DNA from: Rhynchopus sp. YZ270_cl-10
Lineage: Eukaryota
Assembly (NCBI GenBank): GCA_964035575.1
Contig: OZ037838.1
Location: 620,001 to 684,000, forward strand
DNA length: 64,000 nt
Reading direction: 5' to 3'
The notes beneath the pieces are model-generated. The model saw only the letters and a program-made list of their open reading frames with translations. It did no database searches and was not told the DNA's origin. The translations under genes and the position numbers were made by a program. Numbering within the stretch: the first letter of the stretch is position 1; every line of letters starts with the position of its first letter. Below, piece after piece: positions 5,156 to 39,000 of this stretch.

Positions 5156-5370
5156 CACTGTTGTGTGGGTACAGCTGTCTCGTTGCAATGCCGCCTGTTG
5201 CTTCATACCCGAACACAACGACACGTGAACACGGTGATATCGCAAAGGACCCATAATGGGCGAGCGGCATTATACCCACACGGGACATGGTCGCCACATC
5301 GTACTGGTGCAGGGGTGTAGTGTAATCATCGTCACCTTCGTCATCATCAGAATCTTCGCCACATTCATGA
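5156..5370 (-). pseudogene. Orphan 3' fragment of a UBL-beta-propeller unit (blades 6-7), cut at its stop codon by the YR element
   Basis: Translates to ECGEDSDDDEGDDDYTTPLHQYDVATMSRVGIMPLAHYGSFAISPCSRVVVFGYEATGGIATRQLYPHNS, matching the array C-termini. No N-terminal part is present. Confidence 0.8.
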
Positions 5371-7232: not shown

Positions 7233-7797
7233 CTTGGTGTGGGGTGGAAAGGCCTGTGTGTCGTGTATGAACAGCAGTTGTGCACTACCTCAGAGCGGGA
7301 CATCGCACAACGGCTGGTGGTCATCTTCTGAGAAAGCTTGCAAGGGATGTACACTGCTGTGCACACAAGCACAGCGCATTGAGGATGCGTCGCAGGAAAG
7401 CAGGAAAGCAGGAAAGGGGGGAAACAGCTTGCCAAGAAGAGGAAAGGCTACACAACAACATCGCTAAAAATTGAAGAAAAAAACCGACACATGAATGAGT
7501 GTTCTGCACCACTGCGCATCTTCGTCACCATCGGGGCCAACACGTTTGCACCATGAGTCATGAAGGCTTCGCACAACGTCAAAGTTTCTGAGTGTCGCCC
7601 ATCCAGCAAGACCCCTGCTGGGGACGGGATTGACGCGAGCGCCTCATGGGCATCGTGTGAGGTGGGCGACCTGTGGCAGGCAAACAAAAGAAAAGCAGCA
7701 ACAGGGCTGAAAGGGGAGGTTCTTGGGGTGTTTTGAGGGTCTTGGGTTTTTTTGCAGGGGGGATATTCAGCACCACCCTCCCTCCCCTGGTCACACA

Positions 7798-8937
7798 TCA
7801 CTCACTGTTGTGTGGGTACAAATGTTGTGTCACAATGACGCCATCCGGTTGCATAACCACAACAACGCGCGAACACGGCGATATCGCAAAGGATTTATTA
7901 TAGGTTTGCGGTATCACACGCACACAGGACATGGTTGCCACATCATACTGGTGCAGGAAGAAAGTGTAATCGTAACACCCACCGTCAGAATCTTCACTGC
8001 CTTCATCTCTAGATTCCGCAACCTCTACCCTGACCACAAGGTACTTCCCACACGGGGTGAACTGCATGCACTCGACACGCCCATCCCCATCCACAGCAAC
8101 ACTGCGAAGAGCCACGCCATCCCGATCATAGAGCTGTACGTTGTTTCCCTTCTCCACAGCAAAGACAGAGGCAGACCGTGAGAGCGCCACTGCACGCCAC
8201 GCGTCCGTCGGCACACATCCCACAGCTTCACCTGTGTTCACATCCCACAGACGTATGTTGCCCTCCATGTCTGATTTAGTGATCACCCACCCACCACAGT
8301 CCGACACTGCCATTCCCCAACACCTTTCGTGCGAGAGAGAGCGGAGCAACGTCAGGTCTTCGTCATACACAGAGACGCCGTCTTTTCCCTTCGAGACAAC
8401 AACACCGCCACACGCGAACACTGACTTCGAGAGGCCGTCGACTTTGCGGAGCACCTCCCCACCCGGAAGCGCAACCTCGAGAAGGTAATCCCCACACGCC
8501 AGGTAGCAGCGTGTCTTGCACTGCGAGATCGCAGGCCGACCGTGCACATCACTGTCCACTTCAAACGAGAAGACAGTATCGAAGGTTTCTGTGTCGAAGC
8601 CGCCAACATATCCACTTCCGTGCGGACTATAGACGCAGAGTGTTCCACAACGCGACAGCGACAGGGTTCCCACATGAGTTGCAGTGTACTCAGCAGGACA
8701 CTTGATGTCGGCCAAGCGAGGGCGGGCAAGCACAACCTGCACCCCTGCACAAAACGCAGTGTCCTGCAGACGGCACGTCCCCTCCAGCACCTGCGTGCCG
8801 ATGCGCATCTCGACAGACGCAGGCGAGACAGCAAGCGCCGTGCACGCAACCTCCTTTGCCGCTGCAACGTTCGCCTCGCACGGCACCTCCACTGTCGCAG
8901 TCACGCCTGACTCTTCCAGCACAAAGGTCACATCCAT
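7798..8937 (-). CDS. U1: UBL + 7-blade WD40-like propeller (379 aa)
   Basis: Intact ORF from MDVTFVLEESG to LYPHNSE, with WD-like LWDVNTG/LYD/QYD strands. Confidence 0.9.
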   Translation of the reverse strand: MDVTFVLEESGVTATVEVPCEANVAAAKEVACTALAVSPASVEMRIGTQVLEGTCRLQDTAFCAGVQVVLARPRLADIKCPAEYTATHVGTLSLSRCGTLCVYSPHGSGYVGGFDTETFDTVFSFEVDSDVHGRPAISQCKTRCYLACGDYLLEVALPGGEVLRKVDGLSKSVFACGGVVVSKGKDGVSVYDEDLTLLRSLSHERCWGMAVSDCGGWVITKSDMEGNIRLWDVNTGEAVGCVPTDAWRAVALSRSASVFAVEKGNNVQLYDRDGVALRSVAVDGDGRVECMQFTPCGKYLVVRVEVAESRDEGSEDSDGGCYDYTFFLHQYDVATMSCVRVIPQTYNKSFAISPCSRVVVVMQPDGVIVTQHLYPHNSE

Positions 8938-9241: not shown

Positions 9242-10387
9242 TCACTCACTGTTGTGTGGGTACAAATGTTGTGTCACAATGCCGCCAGCTGGTTGCACCA
9301 TAACAACGCGCGAACACGGCGATATCACAAATGACAAAATATAGGTTTGCGGTATCACACGCACACAGGACATGGTTGCCACATCATACTGGTGCAGGAA
9401 GAAATTGGAATCGTAATAGTCAGAATCTTCACTGCCTTCATCTCTAGAATCCGCAACCTCTACCGCCACCACAAGGTACTTCCCACACGGGGTGAACTGC
9501 ATGCACTCGTTGCCCCAACCCCAATCCACAGCAACACTGCGAAGAGCCACGCCATCCCGATCATAGAGCTGTACGTTGTTTCCCATCTCCACAGCAAAGA
9601 CAGAGGCAGACCGTGAAAGCGCGACAGTACGGCTGGATACAGGCACACATGCCACAGCTTCACCTGTGTTCACATCCCACAGACGTATGTTGCCCTCCAT
9701 TTCGGATCTGGTGATCACCCACCCACCACAGTCCGACATTGCCAAGTTCCCACACCACTCGTCGCACCCCTTGTGTGAGAGAGTGCGGAGCAACGTCAGG
9801 TCTTCGTCATACACAGAGACGCCGTCTTTTCCCTTCGAGACAACAACACCACCACACGCGAACACTGACTTCGAGATGATGTGGACTTTGCGGAGCACCT
9901 CCCCACCCGGAAGTGCAACCTCGAGAAGGTGATCCCCACACGCCAAGTAGCAGCGTGCCTTGCACTGCGAGATGGCAGGCCGACCGTACACATCATTGTC
10001 CACCTCAAACGAGAAGACAGTATCGAAGGTTTCTGTGTCGAAGCCGCCAACATATCCACTTCCGTGCGGACTATTTCTAAGATGGACACAGAGTGTTCCA
10101 CAACGAGACAGCGACAAGTCTTTTGCATTCTCACCATACACAGCAGGACACTTGATGTCGGCAAAGCGGCGGGCGAGCACAACCTGCACCCCTGCACCAA
10201 ACGCAGTGTCCTGCAGACGGCACGTCCCCTCCAGCACCTGCGTGCCGATGCGCATCTCGACAGACGCAGGCGAGACAGCAAGCGCCGTGCACGCAACCTC
10301 CTTTGCCGCTGCAACGTCCGCCTCGCACGGCACCTCCACTGTCGCAGTCACGCCTGACTCTTCCAGCACAAAGGTCACATCCATCAT
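9242..10387 (-). CDS. U2: UBL + beta-propeller (381 aa)
   Basis: Intact paralogous ORF. Confidence 0.9.
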   Translation of the reverse strand: MMDVTFVLEESGVTATVEVPCEADVAAAKEVACTALAVSPASVEMRIGTQVLEGTCRLQDTAFGAGVQVVLARRFADIKCPAVYGENAKDLSLSRCGTLCVHLRNSPHGSGYVGGFDTETFDTVFSFEVDNDVYGRPAISQCKARCYLACGDHLLEVALPGGEVLRKVHIISKSVFACGGVVVSKGKDGVSVYDEDLTLLRTLSHKGCDEWCGNLAMSDCGGWVITRSEMEGNIRLWDVNTGEAVACVPVSSRTVALSRSASVFAVEMGNNVQLYDRDGVALRSVAVDWGWGNECMQFTPCGKYLVVAVEVADSRDEGSEDSDYYDSNFFLHQYDVATMSCVRVIPQTYILSFVISPCSRVVMVQPAGGIVTQHLYPHNSE

Positions 10388-11438: not shown

Positions 11439-12557
11439 TCACTTGTTGTGGGGGTACAGATGTCTCGTCACAATGTTGGTGCTGCCGGACAACGAAAACA
11501 TGACCACACTCGAACACGGGGATATCGCAAATGACGCACTGTTGACGCCCTGGATCACAAGTACACAGGCCATCGTCGCCACATCATACTGGTGCAGCTT
11601 TAGATTGCCAGCATCCTCATCGTCGTAACGTTCATCTTCCGCAACTCCCACGCCCACCACAAGGTACTTCCCACATGGGGTGAACTGCATGCACTCGACA
11701 CACCCACCCGCATCAACACTGCGAAGAGCCGCACCACTCCAATCAAAGAGCTGCATGTTGCCACGTCCCTCCACAGCAAAGACAGAGGCAGACCGTGAAA
11801 GCGCCACGAGACACCACCCCTCAACAGTCACACATGCCACAGCTTCACCTGTGTTCGCATCCCACAGACGTGTGTTGTTCTCACTGTAGGAGGAGGTGAT
11901 CACCCACCCACCACAGTCCGACACTGCCGCATACAGGCACCCTTCATGCGAGAGAGAGCGGAGCAACGTCAGGTCTTCGTCATACACAGAGAGGCCGTCG
12001 TTGCCTTGGGAGACAACAACACTACCACACGCGAACACTGCGTGCGAGGTGATTTCGACTTTGCGGAGCACCTCCCCACCCGGAAGCGCAACCTCGAGAA
12101 GGTGATCCGCACACGCCAGGTAGCAGCGTGTCTTGCACTGCGAGATGGCAGGCGGACAGTACTCACAACGGCCAATTGTAAATTCGAAGGCAGTTTCGAA
12201 GTTTTCTGTGTCGAAGCCGCCAACATGCCCACTCTTGTTACTATACACGCAGAGTGTTCCACAACGCGATAGCATCAACGACATCGCGCTCACCTCTGAC
12301 CTGTGTTCAGCAGGACACTTGACGTCGGCCAAGCGAGGACAGGCAAGCACAACCTGCACCCCTGCATCAAACGCAGTGTCCTGCAGACGGCACGTCCCCT
12401 CCAGCACCTGCGTGCCGATGCGCATCTCGACAGACGCAGGCGAGACAGCAAGCGCCGTGCACGCAACCTCCTTTGCCGCTGCAACCTTCGCCTCGCACGG
12501 CACCTCCACTGTCGCAGTCACGCCTGACTCTTCCAGCACAAAGGTCACATCCATCAT
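11439..12557 (-). CDS. U3: UBL + beta-propeller (372 aa, ends YPHNK)
   Basis: Intact paralogous ORF; start placed at the conserved MMDVTF. Confidence 0.9.
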   Translation of the reverse strand: MMDVTFVLEESGVTATVEVPCEAKVAAAKEVACTALAVSPASVEMRIGTQVLEGTCRLQDTAFDAGVQVVLACPRLADVKCPAEHRSEVSAMSLMLSRCGTLCVYSNKSGHVGGFDTENFETAFEFTIGRCEYCPPAISQCKTRCYLACADHLLEVALPGGEVLRKVEITSHAVFACGSVVVSQGNDGLSVYDEDLTLLRSLSHEGCLYAAVSDCGGWVITSSYSENNTRLWDANTGEAVACVTVEGWCLVALSRSASVFAVEGRGNMQLFDWSGAALRSVDAGGCVECMQFTPCGKYLVVGVGVAEDERYDDEDAGNLKLHQYDVATMACVLVIQGVNSASFAISPCSSVVMFSLSGSTNIVTRHLYPHNK

Positions 12558-12882: not shown

Positions 12883-13971
12883 TCACTCACTGTTGTGTGG
12901 GTACAGATGTCTTGTCACAATGACGCCATCTGATTCCATAACCACAAGAATACGTGAACACGGCGATATCACAAATGACGTAGCATAGGCTTGCGGGACC
13001 ACACGCACACAGGACATGGTTGCCACATCATACTGGTGCAGCGCCTGTGGATTCCTTACCACAAGGTACTTCCCACACGGGGTGAACTGCATGCCCCAGA
13101 CATCTCCACGTATATCAACACTGCGAAGAGCCGCACCACTCCAGTCATAGAGCTGAACGGTGCTCTCCTCCCCCACAGCAAAGACAGAGGCAGACCGTGA
13201 AAGCGCCACTCTACACCGCCACCACTCCGCAGGCACACATACCACAACTTCACCTGTGTTCACATCCGACAGACGAACGTTCTTCTCCCTGCTGGAGGAG
13301 GTGATCACCCACCCACCACAGTCAGACACTGCCACCTCCCTGCACCTTTCGTGCGAGAGAGAGCGGAGCAACGTCAGGTCTTCGTCATACACAGAGACGC
13401 CGTCTTCACCTTCGGAGACAACAACACTGCCACACGCAAACACTTTGAACGAGCTGCCTTCAGTTTCGACTTTGCGGACCACCTCCCCACCAGGAAGCGC
13501 AACCTCGGCAAGGTAACCCAAACACGGCAGGTAGCAGCGTGTCTTGCACTGAGAGATGGCAGGCGGACCGACCACTTCCGTGTCCGCTTCAAACGAGAAG
13601 ACAGTGTTGAAGGTTTCTGTGTCGAAGCCAACAACATTCTTCTCATGAATATAGACGCAGAGTGTTCCACAACGCGACAGCGACATCGCTGCGTGCCCCG
13701 ATGACCTCTCGAAATTGTACTCAGCAGGACACTTGATGTCGGCCAAGCGAGGGCGGGCAAGCACAACCTGCACCCCTGCACCAAACGCAGTGTCCTGCAG
13801 ACGGCACGTCCCCTCCAACACCTGCGTGCCGATGCGCATCTCGACAGACGCAGGCGACACAGCAAGCGCCGTGCACGCAACCTCCTTTGCCGCTGCAACG
13901 TCCGCCTCGCACGGCACCTCCACTGTCGCAGTCACGCCTGACTCTTCCAGCACAAAGGTCACATCCATCAT
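12883..13971 (-). CDS. U4: UBL + beta-propeller (362 aa)
   Basis: Intact paralogous ORF; start at MMDVTF. Confidence 0.9.
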   Translation of the reverse strand: MMDVTFVLEESGVTATVEVPCEADVAAAKEVACTALAVSPASVEMRIGTQVLEGTCRLQDTAFGAGVQVVLARPRLADIKCPAEYNFERSSGHAAMSLSRCGTLCVYIHEKNVVGFDTETFNTVFSFEADTEVVGPPAISQCKTRCYLPCLGYLAEVALPGGEVVRKVETEGSSFKVFACGSVVVSEGEDGVSVYDEDLTLLRSLSHERCREVAVSDCGGWVITSSSREKNVRLSDVNTGEVVVCVPAEWWRCRVALSRSASVFAVGEESTVQLYDWSGAALRSVDIRGDVWGMQFTPCGKYLVVRNPQALHQYDVATMSCVRVVPQAYATSFVISPCSRILVVMESDGVIVTRHLYPHNSE

Positions 13972-14441: not shown

Positions 14442-15569
14442 TCACTCACTGTTGTGTGGGTACAGATGCCTTGTCACAATGACGCGATCTGATTGCATAG
14501 TAACAACAACACGTGAACACGGCGATATCGCAAAGGACCCACCTGATCGGTGCGGTATCACATGCACACAGGACATGGTCGCCACATCATACTGGTGCAG
14601 GTGTGTATCTTCGTCATCGCCACATTCTACATCAAAGCTCCTCACCACAAGGTACTTCCCACACGGGGTGAACTGCATACACTCGACTTTCCCACCCACA
14701 TCAACACTGCGAAGAGCCGCACCACTCCAATCATAGAGCTGCACGGTGTTTTGCTCCCCCACAGCAAAGACAGAGGCAGACCGTGAAAGCGCCACGTACC
14801 GCCACCCATCCGCAGGCACACATGCCACAACTTCACCTGTGTTCACATCCCACAGGCATATGTTCTTCTCCTTCCTGGAGGAGGTGATCACCCACCCACC
14901 ACAGTCCGACATTGCCATGTCATGACACCATTTGTGCGAGAGAGAGCGGAGCAACGTCAGGTCTTCGTCATACACAGAGACGACGTTGTGTCCCTGCGAG
15001 ACAACAACACCGCCACACGCGAACACTGACGACGAGTTGCCGTCAACTTTGCGGACCACCTCCCCACCCGGAAGCGCAACCTTGAGAAGGCCTTCCTTCT
15101 TGCACGGCAGGTAGCAGCGTGTCTTGCACTGCGAGATGGCAGGTGGACCGAGCTCATCAGTGTGCACTTTGAACGAGAAGGCAGTGTCGAAGGTTTCTGT
15201 GTCGAAGCCACCAACGTGCCCAGTACATTCGCCCATCAATACGCAGACCTCGGGACTGTAGACGCAGAGCGTTCCACAACGCGACAGCGACAAGTAGTCT
15301 GCTTGCTGCCGCCAACTGTACTCAGCAGGACACTTGATGTCAGCAAAGCGGCGGGCAAGCACAACCTGCACCCCTGCACCAAACGCAGTGTCCTGCAGAC
15401 GGCACGTCCCCTCCAGCACCTGCGTGCCGATGCGCATCTCGACAGACGCAGGCGAGACAGCAAGCGCCGTGCACGCAACCTCCTTTGCCGCTGCAACGTT
15501 CGACTCGCACAGCACCTCCACTGTCGCAGTCACGCCTGACTCTTCCAGCACAAAGGTCACATCCATCAT
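14442..15569 (-). CDS. U5: UBL + beta-propeller (375 aa)
   Basis: Intact paralogous ORF; start at MMDVTF. Confidence 0.9.
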   Translation of the reverse strand: MMDVTFVLEESGVTATVEVLCESNVAAAKEVACTALAVSPASVEMRIGTQVLEGTCRLQDTAFGAGVQVVLARRFADIKCPAEYSWRQQADYLSLSRCGTLCVYSPEVCVLMGECTGHVGGFDTETFDTAFSFKVHTDELGPPAISQCKTRCYLPCKKEGLLKVALPGGEVVRKVDGNSSSVFACGGVVVSQGHNVVSVYDEDLTLLRSLSHKWCHDMAMSDCGGWVITSSRKEKNICLWDVNTGEVVACVPADGWRYVALSRSASVFAVGEQNTVQLYDWSGAALRSVDVGGKVECMQFTPCGKYLVVRSFDVECGDDEDTHLHQYDVATMSCVHVIPHRSGGSFAISPCSRVVVTMQSDRVIVTRHLYPHNSE

Positions 15570-17159: not shown

Positions 17160-18230
17160 TCACTCACTGTTGTGTGGGTACAGATGCTTTGTCACAATGA
17201 CGCCATCTGATTGCATAACCACAACAACACGTGAACACGGCGATATCACAAAGGACGTATCTGAGTCATGCGTCATCACATGCACACGGGACATGGTCGC
17301 CACATCATACTGGTGCAGAACGTGTGCAGTCTTTACCACAAGGTACTTCCCACACGGGGTGAACTTCATGCCCCAGATATTCCCACGTATAGCAACACTG
17401 CGAAGAGCCGCACCACTCCAGTCAAAGAGCTGAACGGCGCTTTCCCCCCCCACAGCAAAGACAGAGGCAGACCGTGAAAGCGCCACTGGACACCAGAACC
17501 CCGCAGGCACACATGCCACAGCTTCATCTGTGTTCACATCCCACAGACGCATGTTCTTCTCCTTGTTGGAGGAGGTGATCACCCACCCACCACAGTCCGA
17601 CACTGCCATTCCCCAACACCTTTCGTGTGAGAGAGAGCGGAGCAACATCAGGTCTTCGTCATACACAGAGACGCCGTCTTTGCCCTTCGAGACAACAACA
17701 CTACCACACGCGAACACTGACTTCGAGATGCCGTCAACTTTGCGGACCACCTCCCCACCCGGAAGCGCAACCTCGAGAAGGTGGTCCTGACACGCCAGGT
17801 AGCAGCGTGTCTTGCACTGCGAGACGGCAGGCCAACCGTACACTTCCGTGTCCACTTCAAACGAGAAGACAGTGTTGAAGGTGTCTGTGTCGAAGCCGCC
17901 AACATATCCACTTCCGTGCGGACTATAGACGCAGAGCGTTCCACAAGGCGACAGTGACAAGTGTCCCACATTTGTTGCAGTGTACTCAGCAGGACACTTG
18001 ATGTCGGCAAAGCGGCGGGCAAGCACAACCTGCACCCCTGCATCAAACGCAGTGTCCTGCAGACGGCACGTCCCCTCCAGCACCTGCGTGCCGATGCGCA
18101 TCTCGACAGACGCAGGCGAGACAGCAAGCGCCGTGCACGCAACCTCCTTTGCCGCTGCAACCTTCGCCTCGCACGGCACCTCCACTGTCGCAGTCACGCC
18201 TGACTCTTCCAGCACAAAGGTCACATCCAT
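17160..18230 (-). CDS. U6: UBL + beta-propeller (356 aa)
   Basis: Intact paralogous ORF; start at MDVTF. Confidence 0.9.
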   Translation of the reverse strand: MDVTFVLEESGVTATVEVPCEAKVAAAKEVACTALAVSPASVEMRIGTQVLEGTCRLQDTAFDAGVQVVLARRFADIKCPAEYTATNVGHLSLSPCGTLCVYSPHGSGYVGGFDTDTFNTVFSFEVDTEVYGWPAVSQCKTRCYLACQDHLLEVALPGGEVVRKVDGISKSVFACGSVVVSKGKDGVSVYDEDLMLLRSLSHERCWGMAVSDCGGWVITSSNKEKNMRLWDVNTDEAVACVPAGFWCPVALSRSASVFAVGGESAVQLFDWSGAALRSVAIRGNIWGMKFTPCGKYLVVKTAHVLHQYDVATMSRVHVMTHDSDTSFVISPCSRVVVVMQSDGVIVTKHLYPHNSE

Positions 18231-18570: not shown

Positions 18571-19647
18571 TCACTCACTGTTGTGTGGGTACAGATGCTT
18601 TGTCACAATGACGCCATCTGGTTGCATAACCACAACAAGACGTGAACACGGCGATATCACAAATGACGTATCTGAGTTATGCGGTATCACATGCACACGG
18701 GACGTGGTCGCCACATCATACTGGTTCAGAACGTGTGCAGTCTTTACCACAAGGTACTTCCCACACGGGGTGAACTGCATGCCCAAGACATCTCCACGTA
18801 TATCAACACTGCGAAGAGCCGCACCACTCCAATCAAAGAGCTGCACGGTGTTGTTCCCCGCCTCAGTAAACACAGAAGCAGACCGTGAAAGCGCCACGAG
18901 ACACCACCTATCCGCAGGCACACATGCCACAGCTTCACCTGTGTTCACATCCCACAGACGTGTGTTCTTCTCCTTGTTGGAGGAGGTGATCACCCACCCA
19001 CCACAGTCCGACACTGCCACACTCCTGCACCTTTCGTGAGAGAGAGAGCGGAGCAACGTCAGGTCTTCGTCGTACACAGAGACGCCGACTGTGCCCTTCG
19101 AGACAACAACACTGCCACACGCGAACACTTTGAACGAGCTGCCTTCAGTATCGACTTTGCGGACCACCTCCCCACCCGGAAGCGCAACTTCGAGAAGTCC
19201 GTGTTCCCAACATGGCAGGTAGCAGCGTGTCTTGCACTGCGAGATGGCAGGCGGACCGTACACTTCCGTGACCACTTCGAATGAGAAGACAGTGTCGAAG
19301 GTTTCTGTGTCGAAGCCAACAACATTCTTATGATGAACATAGACGCAGAGCGTTCCACAACGCGACAGCGACAAGTTTTCCACATCTATTGCAGTGTACT
19401 CAGCAGGACACTTGATGTCAGCAAAGCGAGGACAGGCAAGCACAACCTGCACTCCTGAATCAAACGCAGTGTCCTGCAGACGGCACGTCCCCTCCAGCAC
19501 CTGCGTGCCGATGCGCATCTCGACAGATGCAGGCGAGACAGCAAGCGCCGTGCACGCAACCTCCTTTGCCGCTGCAACCTTCGCCTCGCACGGCACCTCC
19601 ACTGTCGCAGTCACGCCTGACTCTTCCAGCACAAAGGTCACATCCAT
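18571..19647 (-). CDS. U7: UBL + beta-propeller (358 aa)
   Basis: Intact paralogous ORF; start at MDVTF. Confidence 0.9.
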   Translation of the reverse strand: MDVTFVLEESGVTATVEVPCEAKVAAAKEVACTALAVSPASVEMRIGTQVLEGTCRLQDTAFDSGVQVVLACPRFADIKCPAEYTAIDVENLSLSRCGTLCVYVHHKNVVGFDTETFDTVFSFEVVTEVYGPPAISQCKTRCYLPCWEHGLLEVALPGGEVVRKVDTEGSSFKVFACGSVVVSKGTVGVSVYDEDLTLLRSLSHERCRSVAVSDCGGWVITSSNKEKNTRLWDVNTGEAVACVPADRWCLVALSRSASVFTEAGNNTVQLFDWSGAALRSVDIRGDVLGMQFTPCGKYLVVKTAHVLNQYDVATTSRVHVIPHNSDTSFVISPCSRLVVVMQPDGVIVTKHLYPHNSE

Positions 19648-20743: not shown

Positions 20744-21811
20744 TCACTCACTGTTGTGGGGGTACAGATGCATTGTCGCAATGACGCCATCTGGTTGCAT
20801 AACCACAACAACACGTGAACACGGCGATATCGCAAAGAACGTATCTGAGTTATGTGGCATCACATGCACACGGGACATGGTTGCCACATCAAACTGGTAC
20901 AGCAGGTGTGTATTCCTTACCACAAGGTACTTCCCACACGGGGTGAACTGCATGCCCAAGACATCTCCACGTATATCAACACTGCGAAGAGCCGCACCAC
21001 TCCAATCAAAGAGCTGCACGGTATTTTGCTCCCCCACAGCAAAGACAGAAGCAGACCGTGAGAGCGCCACGAGACACCACCCCTCCGCAGGCACACATGC
21101 CACAGCTTCACCTGTGTTCACATCCCACAGACGTGCGTTCTTCTCACGGTAGGAGGAGGTGATCACCCACCCACCACAGTCCGACACTGCTACGTCCCTG
21201 CACCGCTGAGGCGAGAGAGAGCGGAGCAACATCAGGTCTTCGTCATACACAGAGACGCCGTCTCTGCCCTCAGAGACAACAACACCGCCACACGCGAACA
21301 CTGAGTACGAGTTGCCGTCGACTTTGCGGAGCACCTCCCCACCCGGAAGCGCAACTTCACGAAGGTGGTCATGACACGGCAGGTAGCAGCGTGTCTTGCA
21401 CTCCGAGATGGCAGGCGGACCGACCACTTTAGTGTCCACTTCGAACGAGAAGACAGTGTTGAAGGTTTCTGTGTCGAAGCAGCCAACATGTCCATCCCTG
21501 TTACAATAGACGCAGAGCGTTCCACAAGGAGACAGTGACAAGCGTCCCCTATGGGTTGCAGTGTACTCAGCAGGACACTTGATGTCGGCAAAGCGGCGGG
21601 CAAGCACAACCTGCACCCTTGCATCAAACGCAGTGTCCTGCAGACGGCACGTCCCCTCCAGCACCTGCGTGCCGATGCGCATCTCGACAGACGCAGGCGA
21701 GACAGCAAGCGCCGTGCACGCAACCTCCTTTGCCGCTGCAACGTCCGCCTCGCACGGCACCTCCACTGTCGCAGTCACGCCTGACTCTTCCAGCACAAAG
21801 GTCACATCCAT
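20744..21811 (-). CDS. U8: UBL + beta-propeller (355 aa)
   Basis: Intact paralogous ORF; start at MDVTF. Confidence 0.9.
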   Translation of the reverse strand: MDVTFVLEESGVTATVEVPCEADVAAAKEVACTALAVSPASVEMRIGTQVLEGTCRLQDTAFDARVQVVLARRFADIKCPAEYTATHRGRLSLSPCGTLCVYCNRDGHVGCFDTETFNTVFSFEVDTKVVGPPAISECKTRCYLPCHDHLREVALPGGEVLRKVDGNSYSVFACGGVVVSEGRDGVSVYDEDLMLLRSLSPQRCRDVAVSDCGGWVITSSYREKNARLWDVNTGEAVACVPAEGWCLVALSRSASVFAVGEQNTVQLFDWSGAALRSVDIRGDVLGMQFTPCGKYLVVRNTHLLYQFDVATMSRVHVMPHNSDTFFAISPCSRVVVVMQPDGVIATMHLYPHNSE

Positions 21812-22158: not shown

Positions 22159-23229
22159 TCACTCACTGTTGTATGGGTACAGAAGCTTTGTCGCAATGAC
22201 GCCATTTGTTTGCATGACCACAAGAATACGTGAACACGGCGATATCGCAAATGACGTAGCATAGGCTTGCGGGACCACACGCACACAGGACATGGTTGCC
22301 ACATCATACTGGTGCAGCGCCTGTGGATTCTTTACCACAAGGTACTTCCCACACGGGGTGAACTGCATGCCCCAGATATCCCCATCCACATCAACACTGC
22401 GAAGAGCCGCACCACTCCAATCAAAGAGCTGCACAGTGCTCTCCTCCCCCACAGCAAAGACAGAGGCAGACCGTGAAAGCGCCACTCTACACTGCCACCC
22501 CTCCGCAGGCACACATGCCACAGCTTCACCTGTGTTCACATCCCACAGACGTACATTCTTCTCACGGTAGGAGTAGGTGATCACCCACCCACCACAGTCC
22601 GACACTGCCGCATCTCTGCACTCTTCGTGCGAGAGAAAGCGGAGCAACGTCAGGTCTTCGTCATACACAGAGACGCCGTCTTTGCCCTTCGAGACAACAA
22701 CACTGCCACACGCGAACACTGAGTACGAGATGCGGGCGACTTTGCGGACCACCTCCCCACCCGGAAGCGCAACCTCGAGAAGGCAATCCTCACACGCCAG
22801 GTAGCAGCGTGTCTTGCACTGCGAGATGGCAGGCCGACCGTACACTTCATTGTCCACATAAAACGAGAAGACAGTATCGAAGGTTTCTGTGTCGAAGCCG
22901 CCAACGTGCCCATTCCTGCTACAATAGACGCAGAGTGTTCCACAACGCGACAGTGACGAGTCTCTCACATACGTTGCAGTGTACTCAGCAGGACACTTGA
23001 TGTCAGCAAAGCGGCGGGCAAGCACAACCAGCACCCCTGCATCAAACGCAGTGTCCTGCAGACGGCACGTCCCCTCCAGCACCTGCGTGCCGATGCGCAT
23101 CTCGACAGACGCAGGCGAGACAGCAAGCGCCGTGCACGCAACCTCCTTTGCCGCTGCAACGTCCGCCTCGCACGGCACCTCCACTGTCGCAGTCACGCCT
23201 GACTCTTCCAGCACAAAGGTCACATCCAT
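22159..23229 (-). CDS. U9: UBL + beta-propeller (356 aa); also the second half of the U10-U9 read-through ORF
   Basis: Has its own MDVTF start at 23229 and a stop at 22159. Confidence 0.85.
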   Translation of the reverse strand: MDVTFVLEESGVTATVEVPCEADVAAAKEVACTALAVSPASVEMRIGTQVLEGTCRLQDTAFDAGVLVVLARRFADIKCPAEYTATYVRDSSLSRCGTLCVYCSRNGHVGGFDTETFDTVFSFYVDNEVYGRPAISQCKTRCYLACEDCLLEVALPGGEVVRKVARISYSVFACGSVVVSKGKDGVSVYDEDLTLLRFLSHEECRDAAVSDCGGWVITYSYREKNVRLWDVNTGEAVACVPAEGWQCRVALSRSASVFAVGEESTVQLFDWSGAALRSVDVDGDIWGMQFTPCGKYLVVKNPQALHQYDVATMSCVRVVPQAYATSFAISPCSRILVVMQTNGVIATKLLYPYNSE

Positions 23230-24612
23230 AATTGTTTCAAGAGCTGTGTTGGTGTGATGTTTTTTAATGTTCTGTTTGGTGGACAGTTGAAGGAACTGAG
23301 AGGGTGGACACGTGGAAAGAAGGGATGGGGTTGGGGGTCGTTGTTTTGGGTTGGGGAAGAAGTTCTGGCGCACATCTCTGTGTGGAGGGCGACGACGGCG
23401 GCCTTGGTGTTCGGCTGCGACGGGTGGTCTGTGGTGTCTTGCTCGTGGATGCAGATCTGCCATCACTGGATAGGTGTGGTGGGCAAGACGCATCACTCGT
23501 TGTGGGTACAGATGTCTCGTCACAATGGCGGTGCTGTTGGACAACGCAAACATAACCACACGCGAACATGGTGATATCGCAAATGACTGACCTGTGATAT
23601 CCGGGATCACAAGTACACAGGACATGGTCGCCACATCATACTGTTGCAACTCTGCACATGAAGTTAACAATTGTGCATGACTCTGTACTCTGACCACAAG
23701 GTACTTCCCACACGGGGTGAATTGCATGCCGCCGACGTCACTAACCACATCAATCCTGCCATCAACACTGCGAAGAGCCACACCACTCCAATCATAGAGG
23801 TGCACGTAACCAGAGCAGCACACAGCAAAGACAGAGGCAGACCGTGAAAGCGCCACTCTACACTGCCACCCCTCCGCAGGCACACATGCCACAGCTTCAC
23901 CTGTGTTCACATCCCACAGACGTGCGTTCTTCTCACGGTAGGAGTAGGTGATCACCCACCCACCACAGTCCGACACTGCCGCATCTCTGCACTCTTCGTG
24001 CGAGAGAGAGCGGAGCAACGTCAGGTCTTCGTCATACACAGAGACGCCGTCTTTGCCCTTCGAGACAACAACACCGCCACACGCGAACACTTTGAACGAG
24101 CTGCCTTCAGTATCGACTTTGCGGAGCACCTCCCCACCAGGAAGCGCAACCTCGAGAAGGCCTTCCACACACGGCAGGTAGCAGCGTGTCTTGCACTGAG
24201 AGATGGCAGGCGGACCGACCACTTCCGTGTCCGCTTCAAACGAGAAGACAGTGTTGAAGGTTTCTGTGTCGAAGCCAACAACATTCTTCTCATGAATATA
24301 GATGCAGAGTGTTCCACAACGCGACAGCGACATCGCTACGTGCCCCGATGACCTCTCGAAATTGTACTCAGCAGGACACTTGATGTCGGCAAAGCGGCGT
24401 GCAAGCACAACCTGCACCCCTGCATCAAACGCAGTGTCCTGCAGACGGCACGTCCCCTCCAGCACCTGCGTGCCGATGCGCATCTCGACAGACGCAGGCG
24501 AGACAGCAAGCGCCGTGCACGCAACCTCCTTTGCCGCTGCAACCTTCGCCTCGCACGGCACCTCCACTGTCGCAGTCACGCCTGACTCTTCCAGCACAAA
24601 GGTCACATCCAT
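22159..24612 (-). CDS. U10 read through into U9: tandem (UBL-propeller)x2, 817 aa
   Basis: The U10 end reads ccacaacgagtgatg versus the normal ccacacaacagtgagtgatg, i.e. 5 nt shorter. The stop is lost and the frame stays open into U9. Confidence 0.65.
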   Translation of the reverse strand: MDVTFVLEESGVTATVEVPCEAKVAAAKEVACTALAVSPASVEMRIGTQVLEGTCRLQDTAFDAGVQVVLARRFADIKCPAEYNFERSSGHVAMSLSRCGTLCIYIHEKNVVGFDTETFNTVFSFEADTEVVGPPAISQCKTRCYLPCVEGLLEVALPGGEVLRKVDTEGSSFKVFACGGVVVSKGKDGVSVYDEDLTLLRSLSHEECRDAAVSDCGGWVITYSYREKNARLWDVNTGEAVACVPAEGWQCRVALSRSASVFAVCCSGYVHLYDWSGVALRSVDGRIDVVSDVGGMQFTPCGKYLVVRVQSHAQLLTSCAELQQYDVATMSCVLVIPDITGQSFAISPCSRVVMFALSNSTAIVTRHLYPQRVMRLAHHTYPVMADLHPRARHHRPPVAAEHQGRRRRPPHRDVRQNFFPNPKQRPPTPSLLSTCPPSQFLQLSTKQNIKKHHTNTALETIMDVTFVLEESGVTATVEVPCEADVAAAKEVACTALAVSPASVEMRIGTQVLEGTCRLQDTAFDAGVLVVLARRFADIKCPAEYTATYVRDSSLSRCGTLCVYCSRNGHVGGFDTETFDTVFSFYVDNEVYGRPAISQCKTRCYLACEDCLLEVALPGGEVVRKVARISYSVFACGSVVVSKGKDGVSVYDEDLTLLRFLSHEECRDAAVSDCGGWVITYSYREKNVRLWDVNTGEAVACVPAEGWQCRVALSRSASVFAVGEESTVQLFDWSGAALRSVDVDGDIWGMQFTPCGKYLVVKNPQALHQYDVATMSCVRVVPQAYATSFAISPCSRILVVMQTNGVIATKLLYPYNSE

Positions 24613-24963: not shown

Positions 24964-26049
24964 TCACTCACTGTTGTATGGGTACAGAAGCTTTGTCGCA
25001 ATGACGCCATTTGTTTGCATGACCACAAGAATACGTGAACACGGCGATATCGCAAATGACGTAGCATAGGTTTGAGGTATCACACGCACACAGGACATGG
25101 TTGCCACATCATACTGGTGCAGCGCCTGTGGATTCTTTACCACAAGGTACTTCCCACACGGGGTGAACTGCATGCCCCAGATATCCCCATCCACATCAAC
25201 ACTGCGAAGAGCCGCACCACTCCAATCAAAGAGCTGCACAGTGCTCTCCTCCCCCACAGCAAAGACAGAGGCAGACCGTGAAAGCGCCACTCTACACTGC
25301 CACCCCTCCGCAGGCACACATGCCACAGCTTCACCTGTGTTCACATCCCACAGACATGCGTTCTTCTCACGGTAGGAGTAGGTGATCACCCACCCACCAC
25401 AGTCCGACACTGCCGCATCTCTGCACTTTTCGTGAGAGAGAGAGCGGAGCAACGTCAGGTCTTCGTCATACACAGAGACGCCGTCTTTGCCCTTCGAGAC
25501 AACAACACTGCCACACGCGACCACTGTGAACGAGCTGACTTCAGTATCGACTTTGCGGAGCACCTCCCCACCAGGAAGCGCAACTTCGAGAAGGTAATCC
25601 ATGCACGGCAGGTAGCAGCGTGTCTTGCACTCCGAGATGGCAGGCGGACCGACCACTTCCGTGTCCGCTTCAAATGAGAAGACAGTGTCGAAGGTTTCTG
25701 TGTCGAAGCCAACAACATTCTTCTCATGAATATAGATGCAGAGTGTTCCACAACGCGACAGCGACATCGCTACGTGCCCCGATGACCTCTCGACATTGTA
25801 CTCAGCAGGACACTTGATGTTGGCAAAGCGGCGGGCAAGCACAACCTGCACCCCTGAATCAAACGCAGTGTCCTGCAGACGGCACGTCCCCTCCAGCACC
25901 TGCGTGCCGATGCGCATCTCGACAGACGCAGGCGAGACAGCAAGCGCCGTGCACGCAACCTCCTTTGCCGCTGCAACGTCCGCCTCGCACGGCACCTCCA
26001 CTGTCGCAGTCACACCTGACTCTTCCAGCACAAAGGTCACATCCATCAT
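24964..26049 (-). CDS. U11: UBL + beta-propeller (361 aa)
   Basis: Intact paralogous ORF; start at MMDVTF. Confidence 0.9.
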   Translation of the reverse strand: MMDVTFVLEESGVTATVEVPCEADVAAAKEVACTALAVSPASVEMRIGTQVLEGTCRLQDTAFDSGVQVVLARRFANIKCPAEYNVERSSGHVAMSLSRCGTLCIYIHEKNVVGFDTETFDTVFSFEADTEVVGPPAISECKTRCYLPCMDYLLEVALPGGEVLRKVDTEVSSFTVVACGSVVVSKGKDGVSVYDEDLTLLRSLSHEKCRDAAVSDCGGWVITYSYREKNACLWDVNTGEAVACVPAEGWQCRVALSRSASVFAVGEESTVQLFDWSGAALRSVDVDGDIWGMQFTPCGKYLVVKNPQALHQYDVATMSCVRVIPQTYATSFAISPCSRILVVMQTNGVIATKLLYPYNSE

Positions 26050-27334: not shown

Positions 27335-28453
27335 TCACTCACTGTTGTGTGGGTACAGATGTCTTGTAACAATGACGCCAGGTGATTGCAAAACCACAAC
27401 AACACGTGAACACGGCGATATCGCAAAGGACACACCTGAGTTTTGCGGTATCACACGCACACAGGACATGGTCGCCACATCATACTGGTGCAGGTGTACA
27501 CTGTACTCAGAACTGTCGTCTTCGTCATTATCAGATTCAGCGACAAATACCCCCACCACAAGGTACTTCCCACACGGGGTGAACTGCATGCCCCAGAGAC
27601 CCCCATACCCACCCACATCAACACTGCGAAGAGCCGCACCACTCCAATCATAGAGCTGCACACTGCTAGCGTTCTCCACAGCAAAGACAGAGGCAGACCG
27701 TGAAAGCGCCACTTGACACCACCCCTTCGCAGGCACACATGCCACAGCTTCACCTGTGTTCACATCCCACAGACGTGCCTTCTCCAAGGCGGAGGAGGTG
27801 ATCACCCACACACCACAGTCCGACACTGCCACGTACCTGCACCCTTCGTGCGAGAGAGAGCGGAGCAACGTCAGGTCTTCGTCATACACAGAGACGCAGT
27901 CTCCACTCTTTGAGACAACAACACCGCCACACGCAAACACTGACCCCGAGATGCCGTCGACTTTGCGGAGCACCTCCCCACCCGGAAGCGCAACCTCGAA
28001 AAGGCCTTGCTTCCTGCATGCTAGGTAGCAGCGTGTCTTGCACTGCGAGATGGCAGGTGCAACGAGTGTCACGTTCACCTTTAACGAGAAGACAGTGTCA
28101 AAGGTTTCTGTGTCGAAGCCAGCAACATTTCCACGATCACTAACGATGCACAGCGTTCCACAACGCGACAGCGACATCGTTGTTGGTTGCTCCTGTCCAT
28201 TGTACTCAGCAGGACACTTGATGTCGGCAAAGCGAGGGCGGGCAAGCACAACCTGCACCCCTGCATCAAACGCAGTGTCCTGCAGACGGCACGTCCCCTC
28301 CAGCACCTGCGTGCCGATGCGCATCTCGACAGACGCAGGCGAGACAGCAAGCGCCGTGCACGCAACCTCCTTTGCCGCTGCAACGTCCGCCTCGCACGGC
28401 ACCTCCACTGTTGCAGTCACACCTGACTCTTCCAGCACAAAGGTCACATCCAT
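27335..28453 (-). CDS. U12: UBL + beta-propeller (372 aa)
   Basis: Intact paralogous ORF; start at MDVTF. Confidence 0.9.
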   Translation of the reverse strand: MDVTFVLEESGVTATVEVPCEADVAAAKEVACTALAVSPASVEMRIGTQVLEGTCRLQDTAFDAGVQVVLARPRFADIKCPAEYNGQEQPTTMSLSRCGTLCIVSDRGNVAGFDTETFDTVFSLKVNVTLVAPAISQCKTRCYLACRKQGLFEVALPGGEVLRKVDGISGSVFACGGVVVSKSGDCVSVYDEDLTLLRSLSHEGCRYVAVSDCGVWVITSSALEKARLWDVNTGEAVACVPAKGWCQVALSRSASVFAVENASSVQLYDWSGAALRSVDVGGYGGLWGMQFTPCGKYLVVGVFVAESDNDEDDSSEYSVHLHQYDVATMSCVRVIPQNSGVSFAISPCSRVVVVLQSPGVIVTRHLYPHNSE

Positions 28454-31320: not shown

Positions 31321-32415
31321 TCACTCACTGTTGTGTGGGTACATATGTCTTGTAACAATGTGGAGATTTGATTGCATAATCACAACAATACGTGAACATG
31401 GCGATATCGCAAATGACTCACCATAGACTTCCGGTATCACATGCACACAGGACATGGTTGCCACATCATACTGGCTCAGTTGTGCATTGTAATCACCATC
31501 ATCATCATCCCCGACTTCCTTGACCACAAGGTACTTCCCACATGGGGTGAACTGCATACCCCTTCCATCCCCATCCACATCAACACTGCGAAGAGCCGCA
31601 CCACTCCAATCAAAGAGGTGCACGGTGTGTTCCTCCCCCACAGCAAAGACAGAGGCAGACCGTGAAAGCGCCAATCTCTTCCAGGAAAAAACAGGCACAC
31701 ATGCCACTTCTTCACCTGTGTTCACATCCCACAGACGTGCGTTCTTCTCCTTGTCGGAAGAGCTGATCACCCACCCACCACAGTCCGACACCGCTACATC
31801 ATTACACCTTTTGTGTGATAGAGAGCGGAGCAACGTCAGGTCTTCGTCATACACAGAGACGCCGCGTGTGCCTCGTGAGACAACAACACTGCCACACGCG
31901 AACACTGCGTGTGAGGTGCCATAGACTTTGCGGACCACCTCCCCACCCGGAAGCGCAACCTCGCGTAAGTCCTCCCGACACGTCAGGTAGCAGCGTGTCA
32001 TGCACTGCGAGATGGCAGGCCGACGGACCACTTCAGTGCCCACATAAAACGAGAAGACAGTGTTGAAGGTTTCTGTGTCGAAGCCGCCAACATGCCCATC
32101 CCTGCTACAATAGACGCAGAGCGTTCCACAACGCGACAGCGACAAGTGTCCCCTTTGTGCAGTGTACTCAGCAGGACACTTGATGTCGGCAAAGCGGCGG
32201 GCAAGCACGATCTGCACCCCTGCATCAAACGCAGTGTCCTGCAGACGGCACGTCCCCTCCAGCACCTGCGTGCCGATGCGCATCTCGACAGACGCAGGCG
32301 AGACAGCAAGCGCCGTGCACGCAACCTCCTTTGCCGCTGCAACGTCCGCCTCGCACGGCACCTCCACTGTCGCAGTCACGCCTGACTCTTCCAGCACAAA
32401 GGTCACATCCATCAT
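31321..32415 (-). CDS. U13: UBL + beta-propeller (364 aa)
   Basis: Intact paralogous ORF. Confidence 0.9.
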   Translation of the reverse strand: MMDVTFVLEESGVTATVEVPCEADVAAAKEVACTALAVSPASVEMRIGTQVLEGTCRLQDTAFDAGVQIVLARRFADIKCPAEYTAQRGHLSLSRCGTLCVYCSRDGHVGGFDTETFNTVFSFYVGTEVVRRPAISQCMTRCYLTCREDLREVALPGGEVVRKVYGTSHAVFACGSVVVSRGTRGVSVYDEDLTLLRSLSHKRCNDVAVSDCGGWVISSSDKEKNARLWDVNTGEEVACVPVFSWKRLALSRSASVFAVGEEHTVHLFDWSGAALRSVDVDGDGRGMQFTPCGKYLVVKEVGDDDDGDYNAQLSQYDVATMSCVHVIPEVYGESFAISPCSRIVVIMQSNLHIVTRHMYPHNSE

Positions 32416-32605: not shown

Positions 32606-33700
32606 TCACTCACTGTTGTGTGGATACAGATGTCTTGTTACAATGTGAGTACCTTCTTCCAATACCACAACAACACGTGAACACGGCGATATCACAAATG
32701 CACCTGAGCATTGCGGTATCACACGCACACGGGACATGGTCGCCACATCATACTGGTGCAGAGGTGCATCTTCGTCATCATCAGATTCCGGACCCTGTAC
32801 CCTGACCACAAGGTACTTCCCACACGGGGTGAACTGCATGTCCGTGACAAACCCACCCACATCAACACTGCGAAGAGCCGCACCACTCCAATCAAAGAGG
32901 TGCACGTTATTTAAACCCCCCACCACAGCAAAGACAGAGGCAGACCGTGAAAGCGCGACAACGTGGCTTGATACAGGCACACATGCCACAGCTGCACCTG
33001 TGTTCACATCCCACAAGCGCACGTTGTTCTCCTCCCAGGAGGAGGTGATCGCCCACGCACCACAGTCCGATACTGCCACGTCCCAGCACCGTTCGCGAGA
33101 GAGAGAGCGGAGCAACGTCAGGTCTTCGTCATACACAGAGACGCCGTCTCCGCCCTTCGAGACAACAACACCGCCACACGCGAACACTGACCCCGAGTAG
33201 CCGTCGACTTTGCGGAGCACCTCCCCACCCGGAAGCGCAACCTCGAGAAGGCCTTCCTTGTTGCACGGCAGGTAGCAGCGTGTCTTGCACTGCGAGATGG
33301 CAGGCCGACCGAATACATTGTCCACTTCAAACGAGAAGACAGTGTCGAAGGTTTCTGTGTCCAAGCCAACAACATTCCGATAGTCAAGATAGACGCAGAG
33401 CGTTCCACAACGCGACAGCGACAAGGTTCCCCTGTGCGTTGCAGTGTACTCAGCAGGACACTTGATGTCGGCCAAGCGAGGACAGGCAAGCACAACCTGC
33501 ACCCCTGCACCAAACGCAGTGTCCTGCAGACGGCACGTCCCCTCCAGCACCTGCGTGCCGATGCGCATCTCGACAGACGCAGGCGAGACAGCAAGCGCCG
33601 TGCACGCAACCTCCTTTGCCGCTGCAACGTCCGCCTCGCACGGCACCTCCACTGTCGCAGTCACGCCTGACTCTTCCAGCACAAAGGTCACATCCATCAT
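32606..33700 (-). CDS. U14: UBL + beta-propeller (364 aa)
   Basis: Intact paralogous ORF; start at MMDVTF. Confidence 0.9.
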   Translation of the reverse strand: MMDVTFVLEESGVTATVEVPCEADVAAAKEVACTALAVSPASVEMRIGTQVLEGTCRLQDTAFGAGVQVVLACPRLADIKCPAEYTATHRGTLSLSRCGTLCVYLDYRNVVGLDTETFDTVFSFEVDNVFGRPAISQCKTRCYLPCNKEGLLEVALPGGEVLRKVDGYSGSVFACGGVVVSKGGDGVSVYDEDLTLLRSLSRERCWDVAVSDCGAWAITSSWEENNVRLWDVNTGAAVACVPVSSHVVALSRSASVFAVVGGLNNVHLFDWSGAALRSVDVGGFVTDMQFTPCGKYLVVRVQGPESDDDEDAPLHQYDVATMSRVRVIPQCSGAFVISPCSRVVVVLEEGTHIVTRHLYPHNSE

Positions 33701-34165: not shown

Positions 34166-35332
34166 TCACTCACTGTTGTGTGGGTACAGATGTCTTGTCA
34201 CAATGACGTCATCTGATTGTATCACCATAACAACACGTGAACACGGTGATATCGCAATGGAAGGAATGTAGTAGGAGGCTGAGCTTTGCGGCATCACACG
34301 CACACAGGACATGGTCGCCACATCATACTGGTGCAGAGTGTACTCTTTACAAAATGATGATGCTGCACCCCTCTCAAACCCAACAACGACGTACTTCCCA
34401 CATGGAGTGAACTGCACGGCACAGACACTACAATCCTCCTCTTCAAAGCTTCCAAGACTGCGAAGAGCCGCACCACTCCGCTTGTAGAGCTGCACGGTGT
34501 CATAGTACTCTACAGCTAAGACAGAGGCGGACCGTGAAAGCGCCGTGTTCCTCCGCGCCACGTGCTGCTCATCTGGAGGCGTACATGCCACAGCTTCACC
34601 TGTGTTCACATCCCACAGACGCACCGTCTTCTCACTGTAGGAGGAGGTGATCACCCACCCACCACAGTGCGACACCCCCATGGTGAAACAATTTTCGTGC
34701 GAGATAGAGCGGAGCAACGTCAGGTCTTCGTCATACACAGAGACGACGTTGTGGCCCCTCGAGACAACAACACCGCCACACGCGATCACTTGGCGCGAGG
34801 GGTCGACTTTGCGGAGCACCTCCCCACCCGGAAGCGCAACCTCGCGCAGACCGTCCATGCACGCCAGGTAGCAGCGTGTCTTGCACTCCGAGATGGCAGG
34901 CGCACCGCACACCTCAATGTCTACTTTGAAGTTGAAGGCACGGCTGAAGGTTTCTGTATCGAGGCCGGCGACATAAGTGACAGTGCTTGCCTCCTGTGCA
35001 CAGAGGCAGAGTGCTCCACAAGGAGACAGCGATAAATGACTCACATGCATCCCTTGCCCTGCAGTTGTTGGCACCTCTGCAGTGTACTCAGCAGGACACT
35101 TGATGTCGGCAAAGCGGCAGGCAAGCACAACCTGCACCCCTGCATCAAACGCAGTGTCCTGCAGACGGCACGTCCCCTCCAGCACCTGCGTGCCGATGCG
35201 CATCTCGACAGACGCAGGCGAGACAGCAAGCGCCGTGCACGCAACCTCCTTTGCTGCTGCAACGTCCGCCTCGCACGGCACCTCCACTGTCGCAGTCACG
35301 CCTGACTCTTCCAGCACAAAGGTCACATCCAT
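34166..35332 (-). CDS. U15: UBL + beta-propeller (388 aa, visibly the most divergent copy)
   Basis: Intact paralogous ORF with several longer loops. Confidence 0.9.
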   Translation of the reverse strand: MDVTFVLEESGVTATVEVPCEADVAAAKEVACTALAVSPASVEMRIGTQVLEGTCRLQDTAFDAGVQVVLACRFADIKCPAEYTAEVPTTAGQGMHVSHLSLSPCGALCLCAQEASTVTYVAGLDTETFSRAFNFKVDIEVCGAPAISECKTRCYLACMDGLREVALPGGEVLRKVDPSRQVIACGGVVVSRGHNVVSVYDEDLTLLRSISHENCFTMGVSHCGGWVITSSYSEKTVRLWDVNTGEAVACTPPDEQHVARRNTALSRSASVLAVEYYDTVQLYKRSGAALRSLGSFEEEDCSVCAVQFTPCGKYVVVGFERGAASSFCKEYTLHQYDVATMSCVRVMPQSSASYYIPSIAISPCSRVVMVIQSDDVIVTRHLYPHNSE

Positions 35333-37866: not shown

Positions 37867-39000
37867 TCACTCACTGTTGTGTGGGTACAGATGCCTTGTT
37901 ACAATGCCGCCATCTGATTGCAGAGACACAAGAACACGTGAACACGGCGATATCGCAAACCATGAACTGTCGCACAGCACCACACGTACACAGGACATGG
38001 TCTCCACATCATACTGGTGCAGGGGTACTTCGTAATCATCTGAATTGCCATCATTTGTGTCCGTATCATCATCAGCCGAAACAGATATACTGGCCACAAG
38101 GTATTTCCCACATGGGGTGAACTGTATGCCGTCGACACTCCCTCCCACATCAACACTGCGAAGAGCCGCACCACTCCAATCAAAGAGCTGCACGGTGTTT
38201 TGCTCCCCCACAGCAAAGACAGAGGCAGACCGTGAAAGCGCCACTCTACACTGCCACCCCTCCGCAGGCACACATGCCACAGCTTCACCTGTGTTCACAT
38301 CCCACAGACGTACGTTGTCCTCCTTCCTGGAGGAGGTGATCACCCACCCACCACAGGGCGACACTGCCATGTCCCAGCACATTCCATGCGAGAGAGAGCG
38401 GAGCAACGTCAGGTCTTCGTCATACACAGAGACGCCGGCATTTCCCTTCGAGACAACAACCCTGTCACACGCGAACACTGCGTCCGGGGTGCCGTCGACT
38501 TTGCGGAGCACCTCCCCACCCGGAAGCGCAACCTTGCGTAATTCTTCCTCACACGCCAGGTAGCAGTGTGTCTTGCACCGTGAGATGGCAGGCGGACCGC
38601 GAATACGACAGTCACCTCCCACACTAAAAGCAAAGGCAGTATTGAAGGTTTCTGTGTCGAGGCCACCAACATGCGTACCATGACGATAGAGACAGAGCGT
38701 GCCACAAGGAGACAACGACAACTGTTGAAGGCCCTCCTGCACACTGTACTGAGCAGGACACTTGATGTCGGCAAAGCGAGGGCGGGCAAGCACAACCTGC
38801 ACCCCTGCCTCAAAAGCAGTGTCCTGCAGACGGCACGTCCCCTCCAGCACCTGCGTGCCGATGCGCATCTCGACAGACGCAGGCGAGACAGCAAGCGCCG
38901 TGCACGCAACCTCCTTTGCCGCTGCAACCTTCGCCTCGCACGGCACCTCCACTGTCGCAGTCACGCCTGACTCTTCCAGCACAAAGGTCACATCCATCAT
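37867..39000 (-). CDS. U16: UBL + beta-propeller (377 aa)
   Basis: Intact paralogous ORF; start at MMDVTF. Confidence 0.9.
   Translation of the reverse strand: MMDVTFVLEESGVTATVEVPCEAKVAAAKEVACTALAVSPASVEMRIGTQVLEGTCRLQDTAFEAGVQVVLARPRFADIKCPAQYSVQEGLQQLSLSPCGTLCLYRHGTHVGGLDTETFNTAFAFSVGGDCRIRGPPAISRCKTHCYLACEEELRKVALPGGEVLRKVDGTPDAVFACDRVVVSKGNAGVSVYDEDLTLLRSLSHGMCWDMAVSPCGGWVITSSRKEDNVRLWDVNTGEAVACVPAEGWQCRVALSRSASVFAVGEQNTVQLFDWSGAALRSVDVGGSVDGIQFTPCGKYLVASISVSADDDTDTNDGNSDDYEVPLHQYDVETMSCVRVVLCDSSWFAISPCSRVLVSLQSDGGIVTRHLYPHNSE

Follow-up and report, generated by a model that had tools for sequence, protein, structure and literature searches.

The window analysed here, 64,000 nucleotides from Rhynchopus sp. 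YZ270_cl-10, contains 19 intronless gene copies (U1-U19) that lie head to tail on the reverse strand and together span positions 7798-43085 (Table 1). Seventeen of the 19 are intact and encode proteins of 355-388 aa. The interval chosen in the original prediction covers the propeller of U1 but omits a predicted ubiquitin-like head, encoded at about 8722-8937.

The flanking potassium channel gene has its closest named relative in Diplonema papillatum (52%), followed by a record prefixed Hpha (48%), which we take to be Hemistasia. One spacer, that separating U12 from U11, contains a dispersed repeat of 150-250 bp (84-87% identity) that recurs at three places downstream, and a separate tract is made up of 151 near-perfect copies (99% match) of the 7-bp unit CACAGTA.

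Table 1. Features of the window, in positions counted from its first nucleotide
Feature	Positions	Strand	Description
3' remnant of a further copy	5158..5325	(-)	end of blade 6 and blade 7 only
Flanking frame	5835-7289	(-)	weakly kinesin-like (Pfam E 0.08)
U1	7798..8937	(-)	379 aa, intact; predicted ubiquitin-like head and 7-bladed propeller
U1 propeller	7798..8700	(-)	14 variable top-face loops; interval of the original prediction
U1 head, codons 1-72	8722..8937	(-)	predicted ubiquitin-like beta-grasp; DNA nearly identical among copies
U2	9242..10384	(-)	380 aa, intact
U3	11439..12554	(-)	371 aa, intact
U4	12883..13968	(-)	361 aa, intact
U5	14442..15566	(-)	374 aa, intact
U6	17160..18230	(-)	356 aa, intact; reference for model and residue numbering
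U7	18571..19647	(-)	358 aa, intact
U8	20744..21811	(-)	355 aa, intact
U9	22159..23229	(-)	356 aa, intact
U10	23491..24612	(-)	propeller complete; small deletion ahead of the stop, frame continues into U9
U10-U9 readthrough	22159-24612	(-)	817-aa double UBL-propeller frame; may be a fusion, a pseudogene or an assembly error
U11	24964..26046	(-)	360 aa, intact; mosaic, 5' part U10-like, 3' part U9-like
Dispersed repeat, U12-U11 spacer	about 26750-27000
U12	27335..28453	(-)	372 aa, intact
Ankyrin gene	28837-30579	(-)	within the array
U13	31321..32412	(-)	363 aa, intact
U14	32606..33697	(-)	363 aa, intact
U15	34166..35332	(-)	388 aa, intact
U16	37867..38997	(-)	376 aa, intact
U17	39172..40324	(-)	frameshift near 39908, in the D-A loop before blade 2; excluded from selection tests
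U18	40680..41762	(-)	360 aa, intact
U19	41952..43085	(-)	377 aa, intact
Dispersed repeat, downstream	44844-46227, 53205-53354		three copies
Potassium channel gene	47453-48796	(-)	voltage-gated; flanking
CACAGTA tract	49943-50998

A protein search with U6 returned 421 matches among 4463 candidates. The best 120 of the 421 were window copies or unnamed ENA proteins with 58-100% identity; beyond the best 120, the matches may include unrelated WD40 proteins. Setting aside from these 120 the 13 window copies and 3 proteins that do not have the start motif gave the 104 out-of-window paralogues used below. The family count comes from protein searches, and the DNA tests cover the window copies. When the head alone was used as query, 27 representatives (50% clustering) were matched, of which 23 were counted as family and four (P0261, P0264, P0265 and P0267) were judged to be unrelated repeat proteins; all ten head-matching representatives that we looked up were ENA singletons. 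The most divergent member, P0266, had five matches (three family members and two generic WD40 proteins), none of them a named orthologue from a diplonemid. By these searches the family seems limited to one assembly. Our literature searches turned up no account of this family, and neither WD40 nor ubiquitin is mentioned in the main text of the paper on the D. papillatum genome (PMC10161547).

Predicted fold of the encoded proteins

Structure prediction identifies the U copies as WD40-like seven-bladed beta-propellers. In the AlphaFold model of U6, built from 99 aligned sequences, 28 strands form seven four-stranded blades with velcro closure, and the propeller has a pLDDT mostly of 75-96. A fold search with Foldseek matched G-beta at an E value of 1e-16, and the fold of a relative, P0262, matched RbBP5 (VIA) with a Z of 28.8 and an rmsd of 2.5 over 276 aligned positions. 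At the sequence level the family profile matches WD40 proteins at an E value of 1e-22; against the Pfam WD40 model (PF00400) one repeat (blade 4) is recognisable, the best score being 23.3 bits versus a cut-off of 27. The blades differ in sequence, and Tandem Repeats Finder detected no blade-length period within copies. A viral origin of the propeller was considered and found unsupported, the viral fold matches being generic propellers with 8-16% identity. In the three copies checked, no stretch of 19 residues exceeded a hydrophobicity of 1.42, and neither a hydrophobic leader nor a membrane helix was seen; since there is no leader peptide the proteins are probably cytosolic.

The conserved blocks and the seven first-loop variants listed in the original prediction are all present in the translations (U1, U2, U3, U4, U5, U12 and U15). 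Because the U6 model has seven four-stranded blades, the roughly 14 variable intervals between those blocks can be assigned to its seven D-A and seven B-C loops. One of these, the B-C loop of blade 6 (in U1, for example, near 7960-8030), has two states: a 3-residue turn in 7 of 18 copies, and otherwise an acidic insertion, rich in Asp/Glu, that reaches 23 residues at most. On the opposite side of the propeller, six of the seven bottom A-B turns carry a conserved cysteine of the S-x-C-G type in all copies (U6 residues 96, 139, 175, 213, 293 and 332). These cysteines may form a ring on the conserved bottom face, where lipidation or metal binding is conceivable.

The N-terminal head of about 72 aa is predicted to be ubiquitin-like, from a modelled fold and a weak sequence match. 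In the divergent member P0262 the head has the order of elements of a beta-grasp, with a pLDDT of about 85; in the U6 model its pLDDT is below 50 and the first 72 residues are not resolved. The head aligns weakly and ungapped with ubiquitin (E 0.048 against a single ubiquitin), and weak Pfam matches were obtained to ubiquitin (P0266, E 0.039) and to Rad60-SLD (P0262, E 0.019). The U6 head alone matched nothing among PDB sequences or in Pfam, its best Atlas score was 0.82, and matches in the whole-model fold searches covered the propeller and not the head. The order of a UBL followed by WD40 repeats is also that of NLE1/Rsa4 and WDR12/Ytm1, which are conserved housekeeping genes of ribosome assembly. 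An NLE+WD40 cluster was a weak Atlas match (0.83); unlike NLE1 and WDR12, the array is massively expanded and diversifying, and the Pfam NLE model gave no match.

Variability and selection on the two propeller faces

Loop labels were taken from the model strands before any rate was computed, and faces were assigned by strand topology rather than by 3D coordinates. Across 18 aligned copies (U17 excluded), none of 53 gap-free top-loop columns is invariant, compared with 36 of 56 in the bottom turns. Ten of the 14 top loops differ in length among copies, and none of the 13 bottom turns does. Variable sites were expected to cluster on the top face rather than to be spread over both, and they do so among the 104 out-of-window paralogues as well, where mean entropy is 2.53 bits over 63 top positions and 0.27 bits over 56 bottom positions (p=4e-20). 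The variability is nevertheless not strictly confined to the top-face loops, as had been proposed: the loops are hypervariable, but the top-facing strand ends vary too, entropy along the strands of the 104 paralogues starting at 1.65 next to the top face and declining to 0.35 next to the bottom face. Similarly, the A-B and C-D turns, described as fixed, are conserved but vary at 20 of the 56 bottom-turn columns.

To these data (256 gap-free propeller codons in 18 copies) we applied our own Python implementations of Goldman-Yang-type codon models rather than PAML or HyPhy, with naive empirical Bayes for sites and with branch lengths fitted under M2a and then scaled. The proposed comparison of M7 with M8 gave 2dL=479, with an omega of 5.2 on 22% of sites; M8a against M8 (2dL=444) and M1a against M2a (2dL=463) likewise placed an omega of about 5 on about 21% of sites. 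When double and triple substitutions were allowed (multi-hit models), these values fell to 250 for M7/M8, 205 for M8a/M8 and 217 for M1a/M2a, with an omega of about 4. Sites with omega above 1 lie where they were predicted to lie: a posterior above 0.95 under M8 was reached by 42 of 107 top-facing, 0 of 108 bottom-facing and 1 of 41 mid-strand sites, and in the multi-hit model by 45, 1 and 2 sites, respectively.

Taken alone and measured against their own synonymous sites, the top loops have an omega of 1.97 (single-hit) or 2.63 (multi-hit, p<=2e-7 for both), in agreement with the predicted loop dN/dS above 1; the corresponding values are 0.80 and 0.69 for strands, and 0.40 and 0.39 for bottom turns. 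On the multi-hit tree, dS is similar in top loops and strands (1.77 vs 1.53) and dN is not (4.67 vs 1.06). Codon positions 1 and 2 of the top loops differ at 0.46, versus about 0.11 in homologous spacers (gaps included) and 0.12 at four-fold sites in strands. Top-face residues of WD40 proteins are the usual hotspots of protein binding (Wu et al., PMC3419727), and three positions of blade 4 (204, 206 and 223), all with a posterior of 1.00 for selection, would by our own mapping be the R1-2, R1 and D-1 hotspots of that study. With an omega that over all the fits is 2.0-2.8 in the top loops (p<=1e-6), 0.6-0.8 in strands and 0.4 at the bottom, these results support the earlier proposal of diversifying selection on a single predicted binding surface. 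Selection on the top loops is real, and its size is uncertain.

A neutral origin of this signal would have the loops unconstrained or faster-mutating with gene conversion acting elsewhere, and an omega above 1 produced by misalignment, recombination or multi-base mutations. In its favour, four-fold diversity in the top loops is about twice that of strands (0.226 vs 0.122), multi-hit terms greatly improve model fit, the copy tree is poorly supported, and 5 of 40 neutral simulations exceeded the nominal 5% threshold under the single-hit model and 2 of 40 under the multi-hit model. Nonetheless, omega remained at 2.3-2.8 under each control. Trees built per blade or per segment gave a top-loop omega of 2.26-2.83, and loops of modal length only gave 2.39/2.51, the D-A and the B-C loops each being significant. 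The 40 neutral simulations, with a shuffled tree for each loop, had a mean omega of 1.01, a maximum of 1.66 and a maximum 2dL of about 11 (10.6-11.2), against 27.0 observed. With site rates left free and multi-hits allowed, 2dL for M2a over M1a fell from 217 to 57, still with an omega of 2.75; 15 of the 53 top sites had a posterior above 0.95, and the top loops leaned to the fast class. This reduction, together with the raised four-fold diversity, suggests that part of the loop excess reflects rate or deeper ancestry. Counting by NG86 yielded a pN/pS of only 1.18 (bootstrap p=0.033), with D-A or B-C loops alone not significant; this signal is weak because, where a codon has changed more than once, averaging over pathways counts too many synonymous changes. 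Among loops of single blades, those of blades 3, 4 and 5 (6-8 codons each) were not significant, with omegas of 1.94, 0.75 and 1.64. Two further results argue against a neutral origin: the loop indels of the 17 intact copies are all in-frame, and mutation shows no preference for a particular base, with 2.06 (A), 1.71 (C), 1.91 (G) and 2.04 (T) alternative bases per site in the top loops. We consider a neutral explanation very unlikely and already largely refuted.

The same lack of base bias gives no indication of a mutator of the retroelement or deaminase type; in particular, the adenine-specific variation of a diversity-generating retroelement target was not seen. The label 'CDR-like' given to the loops is apt for their pattern, but nothing points to somatic or templated diversification. 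The copies do recombine, and their heads are homogenised: incompatibility between sites grows with their distance (PHI-type test, p=0.001), and the nearest-neighbour copy switches from blade to blade. Four-fold diversity in the head is 0.025, below that of strands (0.12) and homologous spacers (about 0.11), and mean head identity among the 104 out-of-window paralogues is 97%. Since the omega of the head is 0.61, much of its constancy must be put down to conversion. Distances between copies in the head show no correlation with those in the propeller (r -0.22 to 0.19), and in the 130 bp upstream of U1-U19 about five flank types abut the near-identical head at the start codon. Taken with the low diversity of the head, these observations suggest conversion or crossover centred on it. 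The probable sources of new specificities are tandem duplication, point mutation and selected in-frame indels, together with unequal crossover or conversion that would reshuffle blades among copies.

Possible functions of the array

A constant head and bottom face combined with a diversifying top face are most simply read as many ligands and one shared partner. We propose, with about an even chance of being right, that the array encodes a cytosolic repertoire that binds non-self through the propeller and carries a constant adaptor head. The top face of each copy would bind one ligand, presumably a fast-changing foreign protein of intracellular bacteria or viruses, and the head would hand the bound protein to a single host partner, which head and conserved bottom face may share. 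Bacterial endosymbionts live in the cytoplasm or nucleus of several diplonemids (10.64898/2026.01.29.702485), and intracellular bacteria are a plausible opponent of such a repertoire. Against the proposal, the head joins the propeller directly, and no NACHT, death or enzyme domain that could account for an output step was found. A stronger form of this proposal, in which several hundred intracellular propeller receptors with 14 hypervariable loops constitute a germline-encoded, antibody-like repertoire and an innate immunity that works without an NLR switch domain, strikes us as possible but doubtful.

One sub-case of the proposed repertoire is that the head docks canonically to the proteasome or a ubiquitin ligase, making the proteins substrate receptors for degradation. 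A constant adaptor joined to a diversifying, selected substrate face is known from the nematode F-box and MATH-BTB arrays and from BTB-Kelch arrays, and the head here weakly resembles ubiquitin itself. Against this, in a weak ungapped alignment through P0262 the equivalents of ubiquitin Leu8, Arg42 and Ile44 are Glu, Glu and Arg in the window copies (Glu9 and Arg45 of U6 matching Leu8 and Ile44). By this mapping of ours the head appears to have no proteasome-binding patch, and the charged residues at the Leu8 and Ile44 positions weaken the case for canonical docking. Di-glycine is absent after the last head strand, and Pfam models of F-box, BTB and SOCS domains matched none of four window copies, the head alone or 12 relatives. 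The array thus differs from cullin-RING adaptors in having a predicted ubiquitin-like rather than an F-box, BTB or SOCS adaptor, and from shuttles of the Rad23/Dsk2 type in having neither the Leu8/Ile44 hydrophobic patch nor a Pfam match to UBA. We give degradation through canonical docking a rather small chance.

The same selection signature is also expected of offensive effectors. The head would then serve to deliver the protein, a role proposed for the headers of Crinklers, and the propeller would bind targets in prey or host. Crinklers (CR) resemble the array in several respects: a near-constant N-terminus, Ubl in Crinklers and predicted to be so here, precedes a variable C-terminus, the genes are expanded in tandem and recombine downstream of the head, and a signal peptide is lacking (PMC5289972). 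The uncorrelated head and propeller distances fit this layout too. In contrast to Crinklers, the array has no enzymatic toxin domain, and no domain swapping was seen: every family member inspected ends in the same non-enzymatic propeller, whose diversity falls on the predicted binding face. No LXLFLAK motif is visible, and the head has no Crinkler match in Pfam. We regard an effector function as unlikely.

Alternatively, the propellers might recognise the organism's own polymorphic proteins, in self, kin or mating recognition resembling fungal heterokaryon incompatibility or in the suppression of selfish elements. Selection on these loops has been studied best in HET-D/HET-E of Podospora, which act in allorecognition (PMC1805685), with selected codons in the d-a loop and b-c turn of the WD40 top face (PMC1805685, PMC4986451), and the seeming restriction of the family to one assembly fits rapid turnover. 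The diversity, however, lies among hundreds of paralogues rather than alleles of a few loci, and the proteins have no NACHT or death domain; self-recognition seems to us quite improbable.

A close parallel to the array is the fungal NWD/HNWD family (HET-D, HET-E, HET-R), which likewise combines top-face selection with exchange among paralogues (PMC1805685, PMC4986451). The array differs from it in having no NACHT or HET domain, in blades that are not near-identical repeats within a gene, and in the variation of all 14 loops, with large indels; where the fungal family has about ten loci, there are hundreds of whole-gene paralogues here. The arms-race signature that marks the top face of WD40 domains in fungal NLRs recurs here on a different chassis, likely of independent origin. 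The evolutionary strategy is a known one, but our literature searches turned up no description of it on this architecture, and no recognition repertoire in this lineage, the diplonemids. For these abundant marine protists the family provides a concrete candidate repertoire with a mapped putative binding face, and its hundreds of loop sets, all carried by the same propeller scaffold, amount to a natural library.

A further repeat gene lies within the array. It encodes ankyrins in about 5.7 copies of a 207-bp unit (81% match), each unit being 69 aa long and comprising two ankyrins. The variation between units is concentrated in the hairpin tips, and the gene is similar to the ANK repeats of fungal NLRs, which are internally conserved.
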